A stretch of DNA of 64,000 nt from Pyrinomonadaceae bacterium. GTDB taxonomy: Bacteria; Acidobacteriota; Blastocatellia; Pyrinomonadales; Pyrinomonadaceae. Location of the stretch: the NCBI GenBank assembly GCA_035652995.1, contig DASRCS010000026.1, forward strand, positions 580-64,579, given 5' to 3'. The notes beneath the pieces were generated by a model that ran no database searches, had not been told where the DNA came from, and was given only the letters and a program-made list of their open reading frames with translations. How positions within the stretch are numbered: position 1 is the first letter of the stretch; every line of letters starts with the position of its first letter. Positions 27,818 to 44,709 of this stretch are shown one piece after another. Position numbers and translations under genes: made by a program.

Positions 27818-28090
27818 GACGGATTCTGGAACAGAGTCGCGCTTAGAGGCTGCGACTGCTTGTCCGAAGCCGTACTGTCAGCGTGAGAGCCGAAGCCGTC
27901 ACGTTGATTGACCCACGCCGTTCAGGTTGACAGGTCGGGCCGCCGTTCACTCCGCTTTCCTCAAATTTCCCTTCAAAAGCGCGCATTCGACTCGCGGCAC
28001 GTCGCTCGCCTCTACGGACGCCGCCGGGCGTGCGCCGGGCAAGACTTTTAGTCTTTGACGACAACAGATTCGACAAGCAGGTATCTTGAG

Positions 28091-30682
28091 ATGAAACCGA
28101 AGACTCCCTCGTCCCTCGTTAAGTTATTCGTTTCAGCCTCGTTGGCAGCATCCATTTTGGTGGGCGGAGCCGCCACAGTCCACGTCGGGGCGCAAGCCGA
28201 GCGCAAGACCACGCAGCACACGCAGCAGTACCCTGTGCTCTCGCGCTACGCGAGCGACCTGACGCGGCTCGCGCGGCTCGGCCAACTCGACGCCGCGGGC
28301 CACGAGTCCGACGCCCGCAAGGCCGTCGAGATTCTCTCGCGCGTCTCGAAGAACAACCCCGTCCTGCTCGCCGAGTCCGGCGCGGAAGCTTCGGCTGTCG
28401 CGCGCGGCGTCGCCGTCGAGCTGGCGTCGGCCCAAGCGCCCGCCTCTTTGCGCGGCGCGCGCGTCTTCGCGCTCGACCGCGACGCGCTGACGGCGGGCAC
28501 GAAGACCGCGGACGAGTTCGTCGCGCGCCTCAAGTCCGTGCTCGAAGACGCGGCCTCTTCGCGCGGTCGCGTCGTCCTCTTCGTCGCGGACTTCCACCAG
28601 TTCGCCGGCACCTACACGTCGCGCGAGGCGTCCGACCTCGTGCGCTCGGCCCTTGAGCGCGGCGACCTGCGAGTGATCGGCGCGACCAACCCGGAAATCT
28701 ACGGCGAGCACGTCGCGAAGGACGAGTCGCTCGCGAAACTCTTGCAGCCCGTCCAACTCTCCGGCGGCGGCGACGCGCGTACCGACAGGGACGAGTCTGC
28801 CGGCGTCACCCTGTCCGACATGAGGCTCTCGCCCGACCTGCGCGAGATGGTCGGCGGCGCGAAGCCTGGCGAGCGCGTCGGCGTCATCCTTCAGGCCGAC
28901 GACCTGAGCAACTCCGAGCTTTCGTCGCTGCTGCGCCGCTACAACGCCGACGTGAAGTCGCGCATGGATCAGCTCGGCGCGATGCGCGTCGAACTGCCCG
29001 CCGAGGCTTTGAAGGAGATCGCGAAGAGCGGCGCGGCCAGCTACCTCTCGCCCGACCGCCAGATGCTTCCGCTCGGCCACGTCACTTCGACTACGGGGAC
29101 GGACGCCGTCCGCAACGGCGGACTCATCGCCGGACTCACGGGCACGACCGTTGACGGCACCGGCGTCGGCATCGCCATCCTCGACTCCGGCATTGACGCG
29201 GCGCACGCGGCCTTCTCCGGCGGTCGCATCAAGTTCAAGAAGGATTTCACGTCCGAGGCGACGGACGGCAGCAAAGACCCCTACGGCCACGGCGCGCACG
29301 TCGCGTCTTCGGCGGCGGGCGTCAGCACCGTCTCCGGCGGCACCTACGAGGGCATCGCGCGCAACGCCAACATCATCAGCCTGCGCGTGCTGAACTCGCA
29401 GGGCGTAGGCAAGACCTCCGACCTGCTGGCCGCGCTCAACTGGATTCTCAGCCCCGTTGACCCGACCAAGCCGCTCAGTTCGTCGAATCCGACGAACGCG
29501 GTGAAGTTCAACATTCGCGTCGTCAACATGAGCCTCGGCGCTCCCGCCGTTGACTCTTACAAGAACGACGCCGTCTGCCTCGCCGCGCGCAAGCTCGTTG
29601 ACGCCGGAATCGTCGTCGTCGCGGCGGCGGGCAACAACGGCAAGGACGCCAACGGCAATAAGCTCTACGGCCAGATTCACTCGCCCGGCGACGAGCCTTC
29701 GGTCGTCACGGTCGGCGCGGCCAACACCTTCGGCACCGACGCCCGCTCGGACGACGGCATCGCGACCTTCAGCTCGCGCGGCCCGACTCGCGGCAGTTGG
29801 ACTGACGGTGCAGGCGTCAAGCACTACGACAACCTGATGAAGCCCGACCTCGTCGCCCCCGGCAACAAGCTCATCTTCGCCGAGGCCGACAACGGTGCCA
29901 GCGGCTGGAACTACCTCGTGACGCAACACCCGGAACTCGACACCGGCATCACGACCAGCGACAACAAGAAGCTGATGTACCTGTCGGGAACTTCGATGGC
30001 GACGCCGATTGTCGCGGGCGCGGCGGCGCTGATGCTCCAAGTCAACCCGAAGCTGACGCCGAACATGGTCAAGATGATCCTGATGTACACGGCGCAGCCG
30101 CTCGCGGGCTTCAACGAACTCGAACAGGGTTCGGGCGAGTTGAACGTCGTCGCCGCCGTGCAAATGGCGAAGCTCGTCCGCACCGACCTCGGCTCGAACC
30201 CGGCGCAGGGCACGCCGCTGCTGACGACCTCGACGCTCCCGACGCCGCAGACGACCATCGCGGGCTACACGTTCCCCTGGGCGCAGGGCGTCATCCTGAA
30301 GCAGAACTACGCGACGGGCACGAACCTCATCGCGCAGTATCAGACCGTGTACGGACTCGGCATGGTTCTCGGCGACGGCTACGTCTCGACGGACGGCACC
30401 GTTTCGGGGAGCGGCATCATGATGGGCGACGGCATCATGATGGGCGACCAGATAACGACGAGCGCCGGCATGGTCATCGGCGACGGCGCGCCGTTCATGC
30501 CCTGCGGCATCCTGTTGGGCGACGGGATACTCATGGGCGACGGCATGGTCGTCGGCGACGGGATACTCATGGGAGACGGGATGGTCGTCGGCGACGGCAT
30601 CCTGATGGGCGACGCCGCGCTTCAGGCGATGTCGGCGGCGGTCGGGGGCGACCCCGGCCCGGCGATGCAGCCCGCGCCCTAG
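28091..30682 (+). CDS. secreted subtilisin-like serine protease (S8) with N-terminal degenerate Clp-ATPase-like module and C-terminal Met-rich hexapeptide repeats
   Basis: Signal peptide MKPKTPSSLVKLFVSASLAASILVGGAATVHVGAQA. S8 triad AILDSGID / HGAHVAS / GTSMATP. N-terminal region colinear with ClpB NBD1 (see findings). Confidence 0.9.
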   Translation: MKPKTPSSLVKLFVSASLAASILVGGAATVHVGAQAERKTTQHTQQYPVLSRYASDLTRLARLGQLDAAGHESDARKAVEILSRVSKNNPVLLAESGAEASAVARGVAVELASAQAPASLRGARVFALDRDALTAGTKTADEFVARLKSVLEDAASSRGRVVLFVADFHQFAGTYTSREASDLVRSALERGDLRVIGATNPEIYGEHVAKDESLAKLLQPVQLSGGGDARTDRDESAGVTLSDMRLSPDLREMVGGAKPGERVGVILQADDLSNSELSSLLRRYNADVKSRMDQLGAMRVELPAEALKEIAKSGAASYLSPDRQMLPLGHVTSTTGTDAVRNGGLIAGLTGTTVDGTGVGIAILDSGIDAAHAAFSGGRIKFKKDFTSEATDGSKDPYGHGAHVASSAAGVSTVSGGTYEGIARNANIISLRVLNSQGVGKTSDLLAALNWILSPVDPTKPLSSSNPTNAVKFNIRVVNMSLGAPAVDSYKNDAVCLAARKLVDAGIVVVAAAGNNGKDANGNKLYGQIHSPGDEPSVVTVGAANTFGTDARSDDGIATFSSRGPTRGSWTDGAGVKHYDNLMKPDLVAPGNKLIFAEADNGASGWNYLVTQHPELDTGITTSDNKKLMYLSGTSMATPIVAGAAALMLQVNPKLTPNMVKMILMYTAQPLAGFNELEQGSGELNVVAAVQMAKLVRTDLGSNPAQGTPLLTTSTLPTPQTTIAGYTFPWAQGVILKQNYATGTNLIAQYQTVYGLGMVLGDGYVSTDGTVSGSGIMMGDGIMMGDQITTSAGMVIGDGAPFMPCGILLGDGILMGDGMVVGDGILMGDGMVVGDGILMGDAALQAMSAAVGGDPGPAMQPAP

Positions 30683-30740
30683 CTGCCGCAAATTCATCCG
30701 TCCCGCGCGCGCGGGGCCAACATCAACCCCCTTGCCTCCT

Positions 30741-30779
30741 CGCGGGGAAGGCGCTTCGAGCCGAGGCGTCTTCCCCGCG
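30741..30779 (+). terminator. stem-loop after the protease gene (weak T-tract)
   Basis: CGCGGGGAAGGCGC ttcgagccgag GCGTCTTCCCCGCG. Confidence 0.35.
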
Positions 30780-30865
30780 TCCCAAATCTCACCCGAACAA
30801 CTTTCGGCAATTCTTCCGACTCGTCGAACCGACGCGTGAAGGGTGCGGCCCTCGCCGCGACGAAG

Positions 30866-33100
30866 ATGAAGAACGAACGGGCAAAGCTCATCAAGTTCTA
30901 CCAGTGGTCGGTCGTCGCCGCGGGCGCGGTCGTCGCCGCCGCGTGCGCGTGCCTCGTCACGCCCGCGCGGCTCGACCTGCGCTTCGCGCTGCTGGCCTTC
31001 GTCACCGTCGCCGTCAGTTCGCGCATCTCGGTCAAGATTCCGCGCCACGACTCGAACATCACGCTCGCCGACACGTTTGTCTTCCTCGCCGTTTTAATCT
31101 ACGGCGGCCCCGCCGGCGTCCTGCTGGCCGCGGCGGAGGGCGTCTCGTCGGGCCTGCGCGTGAGCCGGCAGAAGAAGCCGCTCACGATCCTCTTCAACGC
31201 GGGGATGATGGCCTGCTCGACCGCGGCGGCGGTCGGCGCGCTCGCGCTCGTCTCCGGCGGCGTCGGGGACTTCTGGCGGCACAGCCTCGACCGCCTGCTC
31301 ATCGCCGCTTGCGCGCTCGGACTCGCGCAGTTCGCGGCCAACAGCGCGCTCATCGCCGTCGTCCTCGCGCTCAAGACGGGACAGCCCGTCGGCCAGACCT
31401 GGAGCAAGCACTGCGCGTGGCTCTCGGTCTCGACCTTCGTCGGCGCGGGCGCGGCCTCGGCGATTGCGAACTTCATCAGCTCGACGGGCTTCTACGCCCT
31501 GCTCGTCGCGCTGCCGATCATCTGGCTCGTCCGCTACACCTACGACAAGTACCTCGAAGACATCAAGACGACCGCCGCGCAGGCCGAGCGCGCCGAGCAC
31601 GCGCGCGCCGAGGCCGAGCGCGAGCGCGCCGAACTCGCCGAGCGCCACGTCGAGGAGCAGCAGCGCTACATCGCCGAGCTTGAGCGCGTGAGCCGCGAGC
31701 TTCAGGAGAGCCGCGAGCACTTCCGCCACGCGGCCTTTCACGACTCCCTGACGAACCTGCCGAACCGCGCGCTCTTGGCCGACCACCTGCGACTCGCCAT
31801 CGAGCGCGCGCGGCGGCACGACGGCCACCTCTTCGGCCTGCTCTTCCTCGACCTCGACCGCTTCAAGACGCTCAACGACTCGCTCGGCCACGCGGCGGGC
31901 GACCGCCTGCTCGTCGAAGTCGCGCGCAGACTTGAGCGCTGCTCGCGCCCGACCGACACGGTCGCGCGCCTCGGCGGCGACGAGTTCGCCGTGCTGCTCG
32001 ACGGACTTGAGTCGCAGTACGACGCCGTGCGCGTCGCCGAGCGCGTGCAGGACGAACTCGTGCGCCCGTTCTACCTCGGCGGCCACGAGGTCTATACCGC
32101 GGCGAGCATCGGCATCACCCTGAGCGCGCACGGCTACGACGACCCGGAAAACGTCCTGCGCGACGCCGACACGGCGATGTACCGCGCGAAGGAGAAGGGC
32201 AAGGCGCGTTACGAACTCTTCGACGCCGAGATGCACGCCGACGCGCTCGCCCGCCTACGGCTTGAGAACGACCTGCGCCGCGCGGTCGAGCACCGCGAGT
32301 TTGAAGTTTACTACCAGCCCATCGTCGCGCTCTCGACGGGCAGGCTCTCCGGCTTCGAGGCGCTCGTCCGCTGGCGTCACCCCGAGCGCGGGATCATCAT
32401 GCCTTCGGAGTTCGTCCCGCTCGCCGAAGAGACGCGGATCATCTCCGACATCGGCGAGTTCGTCCTGCGCGAGGCGTGCCGGCAGTTGGGCGAGTGGCGC
32501 GAGCTTCTGCCGCTGCCACAGCCGCTCACCGTCAGCGTCAACCTTTCGAGCAAGCAACTGACGAAGCCCGGCCTCGTCGAGAGCGTCCGCCAGATTCTGC
32601 GCGAGACGGGGCTGCCCGCCCACTGCCTCAAGCTCGAAATCACCGAGAGCGCCGTGATGGACAACGCCGAGTCGGCGGCGACGCTCCTCACGCAACTGCG
32701 CTCGCTCGGACTCCAACTCTCGATTGACGACTTCGGGACGGGCTACTCGTCGCTCTCGTACCTGCACCGCTTCCCCGTTGACACTCTGAAGATTGACCGC
32801 TCGTTCGTCAGCCGCATGGGCGCGGGCGACGAGAACGCCGAGATCGTCCGCACCATCGTCACGCTGGCGTCGAACCTCGGCATGGTCGTCATCGCCGAGG
32901 GCGTCGAGACCGAGGAGCAGCACGCGCGGCTCGAAGCGCTCGCGTGCCAGTACGGGCAGGGCTTCCTCTACTCGAAGCCCGTTGACGCGGAGTCGGCCCT
33001 CTCGCTCATCCGGCGCAACCAGAGCGCGCCGCTTTCGCCCAACCCCGCGCGGCCCGCCGACAACTCGCTCGCGCGCCTCTCGCAGATACTCGCCGCGTGA
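30866..33100 (+). CDS. membrane-sensor GGDEF-EAL protein (c-di-GMP turnover)
   Basis: N-terminal multi-TM domain and a coiled coil. GGDEFAVLL. EAL domain with EALVRW, EITES and DDFGTGYSSLSYL. An alternative GTG start is at 30836. Confidence 0.9.
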   Translation: MKNERAKLIKFYQWSVVAAGAVVAAACACLVTPARLDLRFALLAFVTVAVSSRISVKIPRHDSNITLADTFVFLAVLIYGGPAGVLLAAAEGVSSGLRVSRQKKPLTILFNAGMMACSTAAAVGALALVSGGVGDFWRHSLDRLLIAACALGLAQFAANSALIAVVLALKTGQPVGQTWSKHCAWLSVSTFVGAGAASAIANFISSTGFYALLVALPIIWLVRYTYDKYLEDIKTTAAQAERAEHARAEAERERAELAERHVEEQQRYIAELERVSRELQESREHFRHAAFHDSLTNLPNRALLADHLRLAIERARRHDGHLFGLLFLDLDRFKTLNDSLGHAAGDRLLVEVARRLERCSRPTDTVARLGGDEFAVLLDGLESQYDAVRVAERVQDELVRPFYLGGHEVYTAASIGITLSAHGYDDPENVLRDADTAMYRAKEKGKARYELFDAEMHADALARLRLENDLRRAVEHREFEVYYQPIVALSTGRLSGFEALVRWRHPERGIIMPSEFVPLAEETRIISDIGEFVLREACRQLGEWRELLPLPQPLTVSVNLSSKQLTKPGLVESVRQILRETGLPAHCLKLEITESAVMDNAESAATLLTQLRSLGLQLSIDDFGTGYSSLSYLHRFPVDTLKIDRSFVSRMGAGDENAEIVRTIVTLASNLGMVVIAEGVETEEQHARLEALACQYGQGFLYSKPVDAESALSLIRRNQSAPLSPNPARPADNSLARLSQILAA

Positions 33101-33251
33101 CGGCGCGGTACCACACACATCCGCTCGCGCCGCGCGCTCGCCAAAGCAGCCGCGAACATTAAAGACAGATTTTTTTTCCGCGCGTCGCTGGAAGGCGACG
33201 GCCTTTCACCCTTTCTTCAACTTACAACTACAAAAACCAAGGGAGACTGTC

Positions 33252-33977
33252 ATGAGCCGAATTCTCGTCAAGTCAGTATTTTCGCTGGCGGCTTTGATTC
33301 TCATCGGCCTGAGCGCCGGCAACGCCTACGCCGACGGCATCGTGTTCGTCGGCCCGGACCCATGCTTCCCCGCGGGAGTCGGTCGCGGCTGCGGCCCCGA
33401 CCGCGCGCCGCACGTCCTTTCGGTTCAGTCGCCGGGCAGTAGCGTCAACGAGGCGGGGGCGGTCGGGCGCTCGATCTCATCGTCGGGCGACGTGCGCACG
33501 GGCGACTGGCTGCGCGGGAGCAACACGCAGACCGTCTCGCTCTCGCAGATCGGCACGACCAACGCCGGCCAGATTCAAATCTACTTCGACGTGAACGAGC
33601 CGAACGGCGGCGGCGTCAGCGACCTGACGCTGAACTCGCTCGTGCTTAACGCGTTCGACGCGAGCGGCAACAACGTCTTCAGCGCGTCGCTCATCGGCGG
33701 GCCGTTCACGCTCCAGCAGCTCGGCAACGGGCAGGGCCATTCCGACTACGTGTTCGCGCTGGACGCCGCCGCCGCCGCGCGGCTTCAGGCGGCGATCAAC
33801 GCGCACCCCGACCTGCTCCTGGGTCTCAGCGCGGGCCTCACGAACGCGCAGGGCGGCCCCGAAAGTTTCTTCATCGGCAGCGCACCCGCGGCGGTGCCCG
33901 AACCGGCCACGATGCTGTTGCTCGGCACTGGACTCGTCGGCGTCGCCGCCAAGGTTCGACGGAGGCGCAAAGCCTGA
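33252..33977 (+). CDS. PEP-CTERM sorting-domain secreted protein
   Basis: ATG after GGGAGA. Signal peptide. C-terminal VPEPATMLLLGTGLVGVAAKVRRRRKA (PEP motif, TM helix, Arg cluster). Confidence 0.85.
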   Translation: MSRILVKSVFSLAALILIGLSAGNAYADGIVFVGPDPCFPAGVGRGCGPDRAPHVLSVQSPGSSVNEAGAVGRSISSSGDVRTGDWLRGSNTQTVSLSQIGTTNAGQIQIYFDVNEPNGGGVSDLTLNSLVLNAFDASGNNVFSASLIGGPFTLQQLGNGQGHSDYVFALDAAAAARLQAAINAHPDLLLGLSAGLTNAQGGPESFFIGSAPAAVPEPATMLLLGTGLVGVAAKVRRRRKA

Positions 33978-44609: not shown

Positions 44610-44709
44610 TCGCTCGTTCCCACGGCTCGCGCCGCGGGCTACATTCCGCCGCCCCTAAAGGGGCTTTCACTCTGCCTCCGTCACATCGTTACGGAGAAAG
44701 CGTCGCTTC

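Follow-up and report, generated by a model that had tools for sequence, protein, structure and literature searches.

A Clp/Hsp100-derived domain without nucleotide motifs in the pro-region of a predicted secreted subtilase of Blastocatellia

AAA+ motors are seen as machines that run on ATP in the cytoplasm, and the pro-regions of subtilases govern folding and latency and are used in enzyme engineering. Described pro-subtilases (Pro-Tk-SP, 3afg; pro-subtilisin E, 3whi; Pro-Tk-subtilisin; fervidolysin, 1r6v) are built of a signal peptide, a β-α-β-β-α-β propeptide and an S8 domain with the D-H-S triad, and their pro-regions measure about 70-110 amino acids (aa). The gene analyzed here lies in a stretch of 64,000 nucleotides from a Pyrinomonadaceae bacterium (Acidobacteriota, Blastocatellia; GenBank assembly GCA_035652995.1, contig DASRCS010000026.1, positions 580 to 64,579), hereafter the window. 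It encodes a subtilase with the same elements but with a pro-region of about 300 aa, in which a folded domain of about 180 residues, absent from the pro-subtilases cited, stands between signal peptide and propeptide. The protein is an exported S8 zymogen with an intact protease, and the additional domain is the core of the first nucleotide-binding domain (NBD1) of a Clp chaperone, nucleotide-dead, devoid of its lid and kept under selection upstream of the propeptide. The gene and the domain (hereafter the module) are:

28091..30682 (+): whole gene, pre-pro-subtilase with dead Clp module, 863 aa plus stop
28229..28759 (+): catalytically dead Clp/Hsp100 NBD1 large (α/β) subdomain, 177 aa, recognized by sequence homology, an AlphaFold2 (AF2) model and the ratio of nonsynonymous to synonymous substitution rates (dN/dS)

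Its sequence places the module, by descent, within the Clp/Hsp100 NBD1 homology group. The segment translates to YPVLSRY...LLQPVQL, residues 59-235 of the listed 875-aa open reading frame (ORF). The best NCBIfam match was the ClpB model TIGR03346 (E 5.1e-43, residues 23-235 against profile positions 119-333 of 853), with ClpV, ClpA, ClpG and ClpK as runners-up, and the higher score of the ClpB-type model over those of ClpV, ClpA and ClpG/K points to a donor of the ClpB type. Searches of PDB sequences with phmmer matched ClpB (6dju, E 3e-35; 2p65, E 3e-35; 1jbk, E 2e-34; also 1qvr), as well as ClpC, Hsp104 and ClpA at E 1e-32 to 1e-22. The initial annotation, made from the nucleotide sequence and its translations, had recognized NBD1 of ClpB/ClpA in this segment, and both the ClpB profile and the PDB matches (around 1e-35) bear this out. 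Pfam AAA models remained below threshold on the window protein; public annotations of relatives therefore give only "S8 peptidase/AprX", and with every source using this label the module is missed by current annotation.

An AF2 model of the module alone, built on 24 family sequences, reached a predicted local distance difference test (pLDDT) score of 88.4 and a predicted template modelling score (pTM) of 0.84. All of the top 50 Foldseek matches of this model in the PDB were Clp/Hsp100 NBD1 structures. The best one was 1jbk, the isolated NBD1 fragment of Escherichia coli ClpB (E 7.5e-17, TM-score 0.80/0.86, root-mean-square deviation (rmsd) 1.6 Å, 176 columns). Homology stops exactly where the AAA+ helical lid begins: lid, M-domain, N-domain and NBD2 are absent, and the lid consensus of live ClpB, EPsveDTI, was not present in the dead-module family. 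What had been described as a Clp/Hsp100 AAA+ module is thus colinear with NBD1 as claimed, but is a fragment and not a whole module, because only the α/β large subdomain is retained. As it falls short of an AAA+ ATPase on every functional criterion, it should be called a ClpB-derived pseudo-ATPase domain and not a Clp ATPase.

The functional motifs of NBD1 were located by alignment at the following positions:

28370..28393 (+): former Walker A motif or P-loop, AESGAEAS for GEPGVGKT, Lys lost
28502..28513 (+): former pore loop 1, KTAD for KYRG, substrate-gripping Tyr lost
28580..28597 (+): former Walker B motif, FVADFH for FIDELH (D to A, E to D)
28733..28747 (+): former Arg-finger motif, AKLLQ for ERRFQ

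Residue alignments to PDB ClpB paired AGAKYRGEF with AGTKTADEF, ALERRFQ with SLAKLLQ and (I/L)FIDELH with LFVADFH, which confirmed each of the Walker A, Walker B and Arg replacements initially noted. The loss of catalytic elements extends to the whole family. Canonical Walker A, pore-loop Tyr and Arg fingers were found in none of 54 homolog modules and in none of 26 module-bearing ORFs from genome and metagenome loci, and the Walker B DE pair was kept in only about five of the 54. The sequence nearest to Walker A among these modules was GETGAGKAA in homolog P0019 (881 aa), which may be a less degenerate, early-branching form. The same homolog weakly matched Pfam AAA (21.5 bits).

Column-by-column comparison of 55 dead modules with 57 live ClpB-type NBD1s showed that the dead modules retained the β-strands and the hydrophobic core; the adenine-pocket DPVIGRD, the P-loop, KYRGEFEER, the Walker B Glu, the GAG..LKP segment and E.D..LERRF were unconstrained. 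The pore-loop Tyr, present in 100% of the live sequences, occurred in no member of the dead family, and the Arg-finger site, with an Arg 100% conserved in live sequences, had the dead consensus A-K-L-F/L. Positions conserved by the dead family alone were occupied by Ala, Val, Leu, Ser and Pro, and nothing in the comparison pointed to a new catalytic or ligand-binding site. After β4, the window protein displayed GATN instead of GATT, a polar position that we take to be sensor-1 and that varies among T, S, N and A in the dead family. Net charge was not conserved either, the isoelectric point of the module ranging from 4.7 to 10.0 across the family. Inactivation is old and complete.

The module is nonetheless a selected, folded domain and not a decaying relic. 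Values of dN/dS (Nei-Gojobori method, four close pairs) were 0.15-0.39 for the module, 0.19-0.31 for the S8 domain and 0.24-0.43 for the propeptide, and reached 0.8-2.0 in the linker. In more than 50 homologs from several families of one class, the module had a length of 177-183 aa, an intact frame and a conserved core.

Full-length homologs (850-900 aa) covered 95-98% of the query at identities from 88% down to 44%, and the module was present in 56 of 120 among the matches listed in the whole-protein search. Taxon-named homologs of the same architecture were all Pyrinomonadaceae or Acidobacteriota. Scanning of GTDB species representatives yielded the module in 22 loci, all from metagenome-assembled genomes (MAGs) of Pyrinomonadaceae, Pyrinomonadales, Chloracidobacterium, Blastocatellaceae, Blastocatellia or just Acidobacteriota. 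An exhaustive module-profile search of 1.84 billion representative proteins returned 24,625 matches, mostly genuine ClpBs; 34 among the best 150 of these were dead, and 33 of the 34 were colinear fragments of the same protease family. Since these 33 and the GTDB loci belong there, the module appears, within reach of the searches, to occur only in this protease lineage of class Blastocatellia. As to the phylogenetic spread of the fusion, a question raised by the initial annotation, more than 50 homologs share the layout and, where a name is attached, derive from MAGs of Blastocatellia (Acidobacteriota). The 80 best genome matches were likewise MAGs without exception.

The single exception among the dead matches was a plant Clp-like protein, P0136 (Oldenlandia corymbosa, 1019 aa), a case of independent NBD1 degeneration unrelated to the bacterial family. 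This protein and P0124 (Triticum urartu "ClpB 2", 552 aa) contain two Clp NBD1-like stretches each, the second stretch of P0136 being without Walker A, pore-loop Tyr and Arg fingers.

The listed ORF, delimited mechanically, runs from TTG 28055 to 30682 (+) and comprises 875 aa. ATG 28091 (MKPKTPSS...) was taken as the real start because homologs use it, more than 50 of them beginning with MK.K.PSS...; the 36 nucleotides (12 codons, 28055..28090, MTTTDSTSRYLE) between TTG and ATG are probably untranslated. From this start, the order is signal peptide, 12-residue spacer, dead Clp domain, acidic linker, propeptide, junction, S8 domain, β region, and repeats with a tail. Besides the module, the parts are:

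28091..28192 (+): Sec-type signal peptide, 34 aa, with basic n-region MKPK, hydrophobic core and VGA↓QA cleavage site (AxA), recognized by its n/h/c layout
28760..28822 (+): acidic linker (SGGGDARTDRDESAGVTLSDM), predicted disordered (pLDDT <50), located where the AAA+ lid would begin
28823..29074 (+): subtilase propeptide, 84 residues, predicted β-α-β-β-α-β from AF2 secondary structure, Foldseek and short paralogs
29075..29155 (+): propeptide/mature junction with the invariant motif GHVT.TTG (H330, T334, T335 and G336 invariant)
29156..30106 (+): Peptidase S8 catalytic domain (PF00082, E 7e-48)
29183-29185, 29288-29290 and 29993-29995 (+): S8 catalytic Asp, His and Ser, with the oxyanion Asn in AAAGNNG at 29621-29641
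30107..30358 (+): β-rich region after S8, with predicted strands at model residues 720-742
30359..30679 (+): acidic C-terminal [GS]DG(I/L/V/M)3 hexapeptide repeats, then a QA.SA...GD.(T/G)P.M tail

The signal peptide was called by manual n/h/c and AxA criteria and hydropathy over more than 100 family N-termini. Every complete family member, long or short, displayed the same n/h/c layout and A-x-A↓Q motif, in agreement with the export proposed at the outset. The linker, of 21 residues in the window protein and 21-34 aa over the family, had a mean charge of -4.9. The propeptide begins with the family motif (K/R)(L/V)SPDLRE, whose conserved core is (K/R)(V/L)S.DLR, and is retained by short paralogs; its elements in the AF2 model were E262-268, H275-283, E287-292, E297-303, H305-313 and E318-321, and Pfam PF22148 (Fervidolysin_NPro-like) matched it weakly and below threshold (17.1 bits against a cut-off of 21, E 0.007). 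The GHVT.TTG motif is flanked by low pLDDT, and the junction is the presumed autoprocessing region, at which cleavage would take place. The protease itself is complete, as first described: in addition to the PF00082 match, D365, H400, N515 and S635 and the triad motifs AILDSGID, HGAHVAS and GTSMATP were invariant in a 37-member family alignment, and the S8 region matched Tk-SP in phmmer searches of the PDB (E 5e-35). The full-length AF2 model (pTM 0.55) retrieved unprocessed pro-subtilases as top Foldseek matches (3afg, 3whi, 3wiv and 1r6v), with 446-502 aligned columns, more than the length of the mature domain.

The possibility that the module is the propeptide itself was ruled out, as a separate canonical propeptide follows downstream, which short paralogs retain although they have no module. 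The initial annotation had considered that the N-terminal region might turn out to be a standard S8 propeptide; such a propeptide is present additionally. Because it lies between module and protease, the module is an addition to the pro-region and not a replacement. Membership of a defence system (IetS/IteS) was likewise rejected: PADLOC gave generic subtilase and weak IetS matches confined to S8, NCBIfam IteS scored 22.9 bits against a cut-off of 900, and the protein carries a signal peptide.

The C-terminal repeat region of about 100 residues had a mean charge of -12.7 over the family and is underlain by a DNA tandem repeat at 30516..30614 with an 18/36-nt unit. Repeats and tail were common to long and short forms, homologs displayed Hexapep/LbH Pfam matches on the repeats, and some extended further with ...G(V/I)DCLDY. 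The repeats could form a left-handed β-helix or serve as a sorting or anchoring signal. On the opposite strand, a 971-aa ORF rich in Arg, Asp and Gly (28133..31048, -) spans the entire protease gene and looks spurious, as is typical for DNA of 67% GC. Short antisense ORFs within the protease gene also clustered across loci, because the sense strand is conserved.

In relatives without the module (short forms, about 650 aa), the signal peptide is followed by a propeptide of about 100 aa, and the S8 domain starts near residue 150, compared with about residue 365 in the long forms. Since the short forms display this layout without them, module and linker could be placed exactly between the cleavage site and the start of the propeptide. 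When propeptide and S8 region together were used for a crude neighbour-joining tree, the best split had 41 of 45 long forms on one side, and a seven-member short clade was nested among long forms as sister to P0019. One old acquisition followed by at least one clean secondary loss is the simplest reading, provisional because the tree is crude. The loss in the nested clade shows that a protease can work without the module, which sister paralogs have never possessed. In the MAG Acidobacteriota VAR_34_metabat_1 (locus L034), two long-form genes stand in tandem (ORFs at about 3945 and 7839), which looks like a local duplication.

The reading we favor, to which we give a probability of roughly 0.5, is a passive accessory role within the pro-region: free of nucleotide, the module would tune folding, solubility and latency of the zymogen or its transit through the periplasm. 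In an ancestor belonging to the Blastocatellia, part of a ClpB-type gene, comprising the α/β large subdomain of NBD1 alone, would have been inserted between signal-peptide cleavage site and propeptide. All residues for ATP binding and hydrolysis, substrate grip and inter-subunit signalling have been lost, while the module has kept its hydrophobic core and would fold as a compact nucleotide-free α/β domain, tethered to the propeptide by the flexible acidic linker (21-34 residues). Subtilases autoprocess at the propeptide-mature junction, after which the propeptide is degraded; for this reason the module would be expected to be released along with the propeptide, or else could be clipped at the exposed linker. 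It would then act before or during activation and not in the mature enzyme, as a stable, bulky, soluble domain modulating folding, solubility or latency of the zymogen or its passage through the periplasm of a diderm cell. Such a module would be helpful without being essential, since the nested clade lost it and sister paralogs work without it. Among the three roles initially suggested (substrate binding, oligomerisation, or a pro-domain-like function), the pro-domain-like one fits the anatomy best, and ring oligomerisation is the least likely.

Several points weigh against this reading or its premises. The selection on the module, as strong as on the catalytic domain, exceeds what is expected for a solubility or steric tag and would fit a specific partner. 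The presumed fate of the module is drawn by analogy with other subtilases, and the full-length AF2 model is uninformative on docking of the module to propeptide or protease. The signal peptide, called by manual criteria, may be an uncleaved signal anchor. Four long forms fell near the short side of the tree, which makes the count of gains and losses uncertain.

A candidate partner is encoded next to the protease. Directly downstream on the same strand, at 30836..33100 (+), lies the gene of a polytopic-membrane GGDEF-EAL protein (GGDEF, E 1e-48; EAL, E 6e-82), whose multi-pass N-terminal domain had no Pfam match. No terminator-like site was found between the two genes in the window. Clustering of flanking ORFs over 26 long-form loci detected a GGDEF-EAL gene downstream in 17 of them, and roughly half of the short-form loci had one too, so that about half of 84 loci overall displayed the pair (e.g., L003, L005, L010, L013, L015, L025, L040 and L078). 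Being equally common beside short forms, the pairing belongs to the protease subfamily and does not explain the module. The association of a secreted subtilase with a membrane enzyme of cyclic di-GMP (c-di-GMP) loosely recalls the LapD/LapG type of periplasmic protease control. Downstream of the protease, ten long-form loci (L004, L005, L006, L024, L029, L033, L034, L036, L039 and L048) shared an ORF that is conserved and about 319 aa long (MNNQLIMTTELNMTQLENTQGF...). A gap of about 1 kb separates protease and GGDEF-EAL genes in L005, and a malate-dehydrogenase-like gene recurred in nine loci.

As the main alternative, the module could be a docking adaptor that holds the zymogen or the released pro-fragment on a partner and so localizes or times activation; a cell-envelope component, the secretion apparatus, a substrate or the downstream membrane GGDEF-EAL protein could be this partner. 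We regard this as possible but rather unlikely. It agrees with a module dN/dS comparable to that of the catalytic domain, with a flexible tether typical of adaptor domains, with the GGDEF-EAL gene lying downstream in the window and in most of the long-form loci, and with the precedent of the dead AAA+-like luminal domains of LAP1 and LULL1 (PMC4358337, PMC4999309). However, the conserved positions are of the core type and no family-specific polar or aromatic surface motif was found, net charge is unconserved, module-less short forms have the GGDEF-EAL gene equally often, and one clade lost the module. Going further, the module might belong to a new class of extracytoplasmic pseudo-AAA+ regulators acting through a specific partner or as nucleotide-free rings. 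Binding of a partner, for which the GGDEF-EAL protein or an envelope component would be candidates, would then couple protease activation to cell-surface signalling; this is an unlikely explanation in our judgement. Rings could also serve as a scaffold, with nucleotide-free hexamers clustering six proteases into a self-compartmentalised extracellular protease comparable to Lon or LonC. The fold is that of a ring-forming ATPase, and LonC, an ATPase-dead AAA-like module fused to a protease, still forms rings (PMC3391209, PMC13069640). Such a scaffold is nevertheless very unlikely here, because the helical lid, which makes half of every AAA+ inter-subunit interface, is absent, Arg fingers and bridging nucleotide are gone, and conservation within the module is lowest in the segments that once formed the interface. 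Moreover, a module upstream of the propeptide would detach on maturation. The isolated ClpB NBD1 fragment (1jbk) reportedly behaves as a monomer, which also speaks against rings.

That the module is a functionless, neutrally decaying remnant of an accidental gene fusion is highly improbable. Its loss in one clade, the disappearance of all catalytic motifs and its faster divergence (29-85% identity, compared with 44-88% for the whole protein) would suit a relic, but dN/dS well below that of the linker, the intact frame, near-constant length and conserved core in all those homologs, and a confidently predicted fold are at odds with decay. It is scarcely credible that the protein stays in the cytoplasm, its N-terminal hydrophobic segment being no signal peptide, and that the module still binds nucleotide there in a non-canonical way. 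The manual call of the signal peptide, the conservative substitution at sensor-1 (GATN), the Walker B DE kept by a few homologs and the GETGAGKAA of P0019 leave some room for it. On the other side, n-region, h-region and A-x-A↓Q are conserved in complete members including canonical short pro-subtilases, the P-loop position is acidic and variable, the adenine-pocket residues are unconstrained, and PADLOC indicated no defence-type S8/ATPase membership beyond generic subtilase.

Other features of the window concern the surroundings of the gene. An ORF at 32793..33977 (+) has a PEP-CTERM sorting motif at its C-terminal end (PF07589, E 3e-7), and this implies that the organism possesses an exosortase system. 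Translation probably begins far downstream of the TTG with which the ORF is listed, since the first 150 residues or so are rich in Arg, Ser and Pro, unlike the remaining translation. A PEP-CTERM gene also stands upstream of the ortholog in locus L084. At 44619..44665 (+), the Rfam small RNA family Acido-Lenti-1 matched with 39.8 bits (gathering score 37), which fits the Acidobacteriota origin.

The module is a real, conserved and unannotated domain exaptation restricted, within reach of the searches, to one bacterial class, and a novel pro-region domain in a subtilase zymogen. In the open-access full-text literature, neither a Clp-derived domain in a subtilase nor an extracytoplasmic bacterial pseudo-AAA+ domain was found reported, and no curated Pfam, NCBIfam or PADLOC model describes the module. 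It offers a natural case of re-use of a pseudoenzyme domain where the activity of the parent is impossible, and widens the known repertoire of subtilase pro-regions. Blastocatellia are abundant in soil and mostly uncultured, and exoproteases feed nitrogen turnover; because those of soil-abundant bacteria contribute to this turnover, an accessory domain controlling protease activation could matter ecologically.

Compared with NBD1 of ClpB/Hsp104 (1jbk), the module shares a homologous, colinear α/β core with about 38% identity and a predicted superposition of 1.6 Å rmsd, and its two ends, the LxKY..DLT helix and ..RFQ.V, coincide exactly with those of the large subdomain. Unlike ClpB, it is without Walker A Lys, Walker B pair, pore-loop Tyr, Arg fingers, lid, M- and N-domains and NBD2, and it is preceded by a signal peptide and fused to the pro-region of a protease, so that ATPase or unfoldase activity would be impossible.

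LonC of Meiothermus taiwanensis also combines an ATPase-dead AAA-like module and a serine protease in one polypeptide (PMC3391209, PMC13069640). However, the AAA-like module of LonC is complete, lid included, LonC assembles into rings that enclose an S16 protease chamber, and it is no Sec-exported zymogen, whereas the window protein has the large subdomain only, an S8 protease, and the module in a removable pro-region. Plasmodium HSP101, of the Plasmodium translocon of exported proteins (PTEX; 6e10/6e11), is likewise of the ClpB type, has a signal peptide and works beyond the cytosol of the cell that makes it; it is a complete, active, hexameric two-ring ATPase, in contrast to the single dead subdomain described here. 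The luminal domains of the Torsin activators LAP1 and LULL1 resemble the module in having an AAA+-like fold without nucleotide motifs, in being non-enzymatic and in residing outside the cytosol (PMC4358337, PMC4999309). In these eukaryotic proteins an Arg finger is still functional and supplies the missing part of the active site in a live AAA+ partner (PMC4358337, PMC4999309), whereas the window module has lost its Arg fingers and no live extracytoplasmic AAA+ partner is known for it. Should the module act as a regulator all the same, it would be a bacterial counterpart of the LAP1/LULL1-type pseudo-ATPases and the first Hsp100-derived domain operating outside the bacterial cytoplasm.

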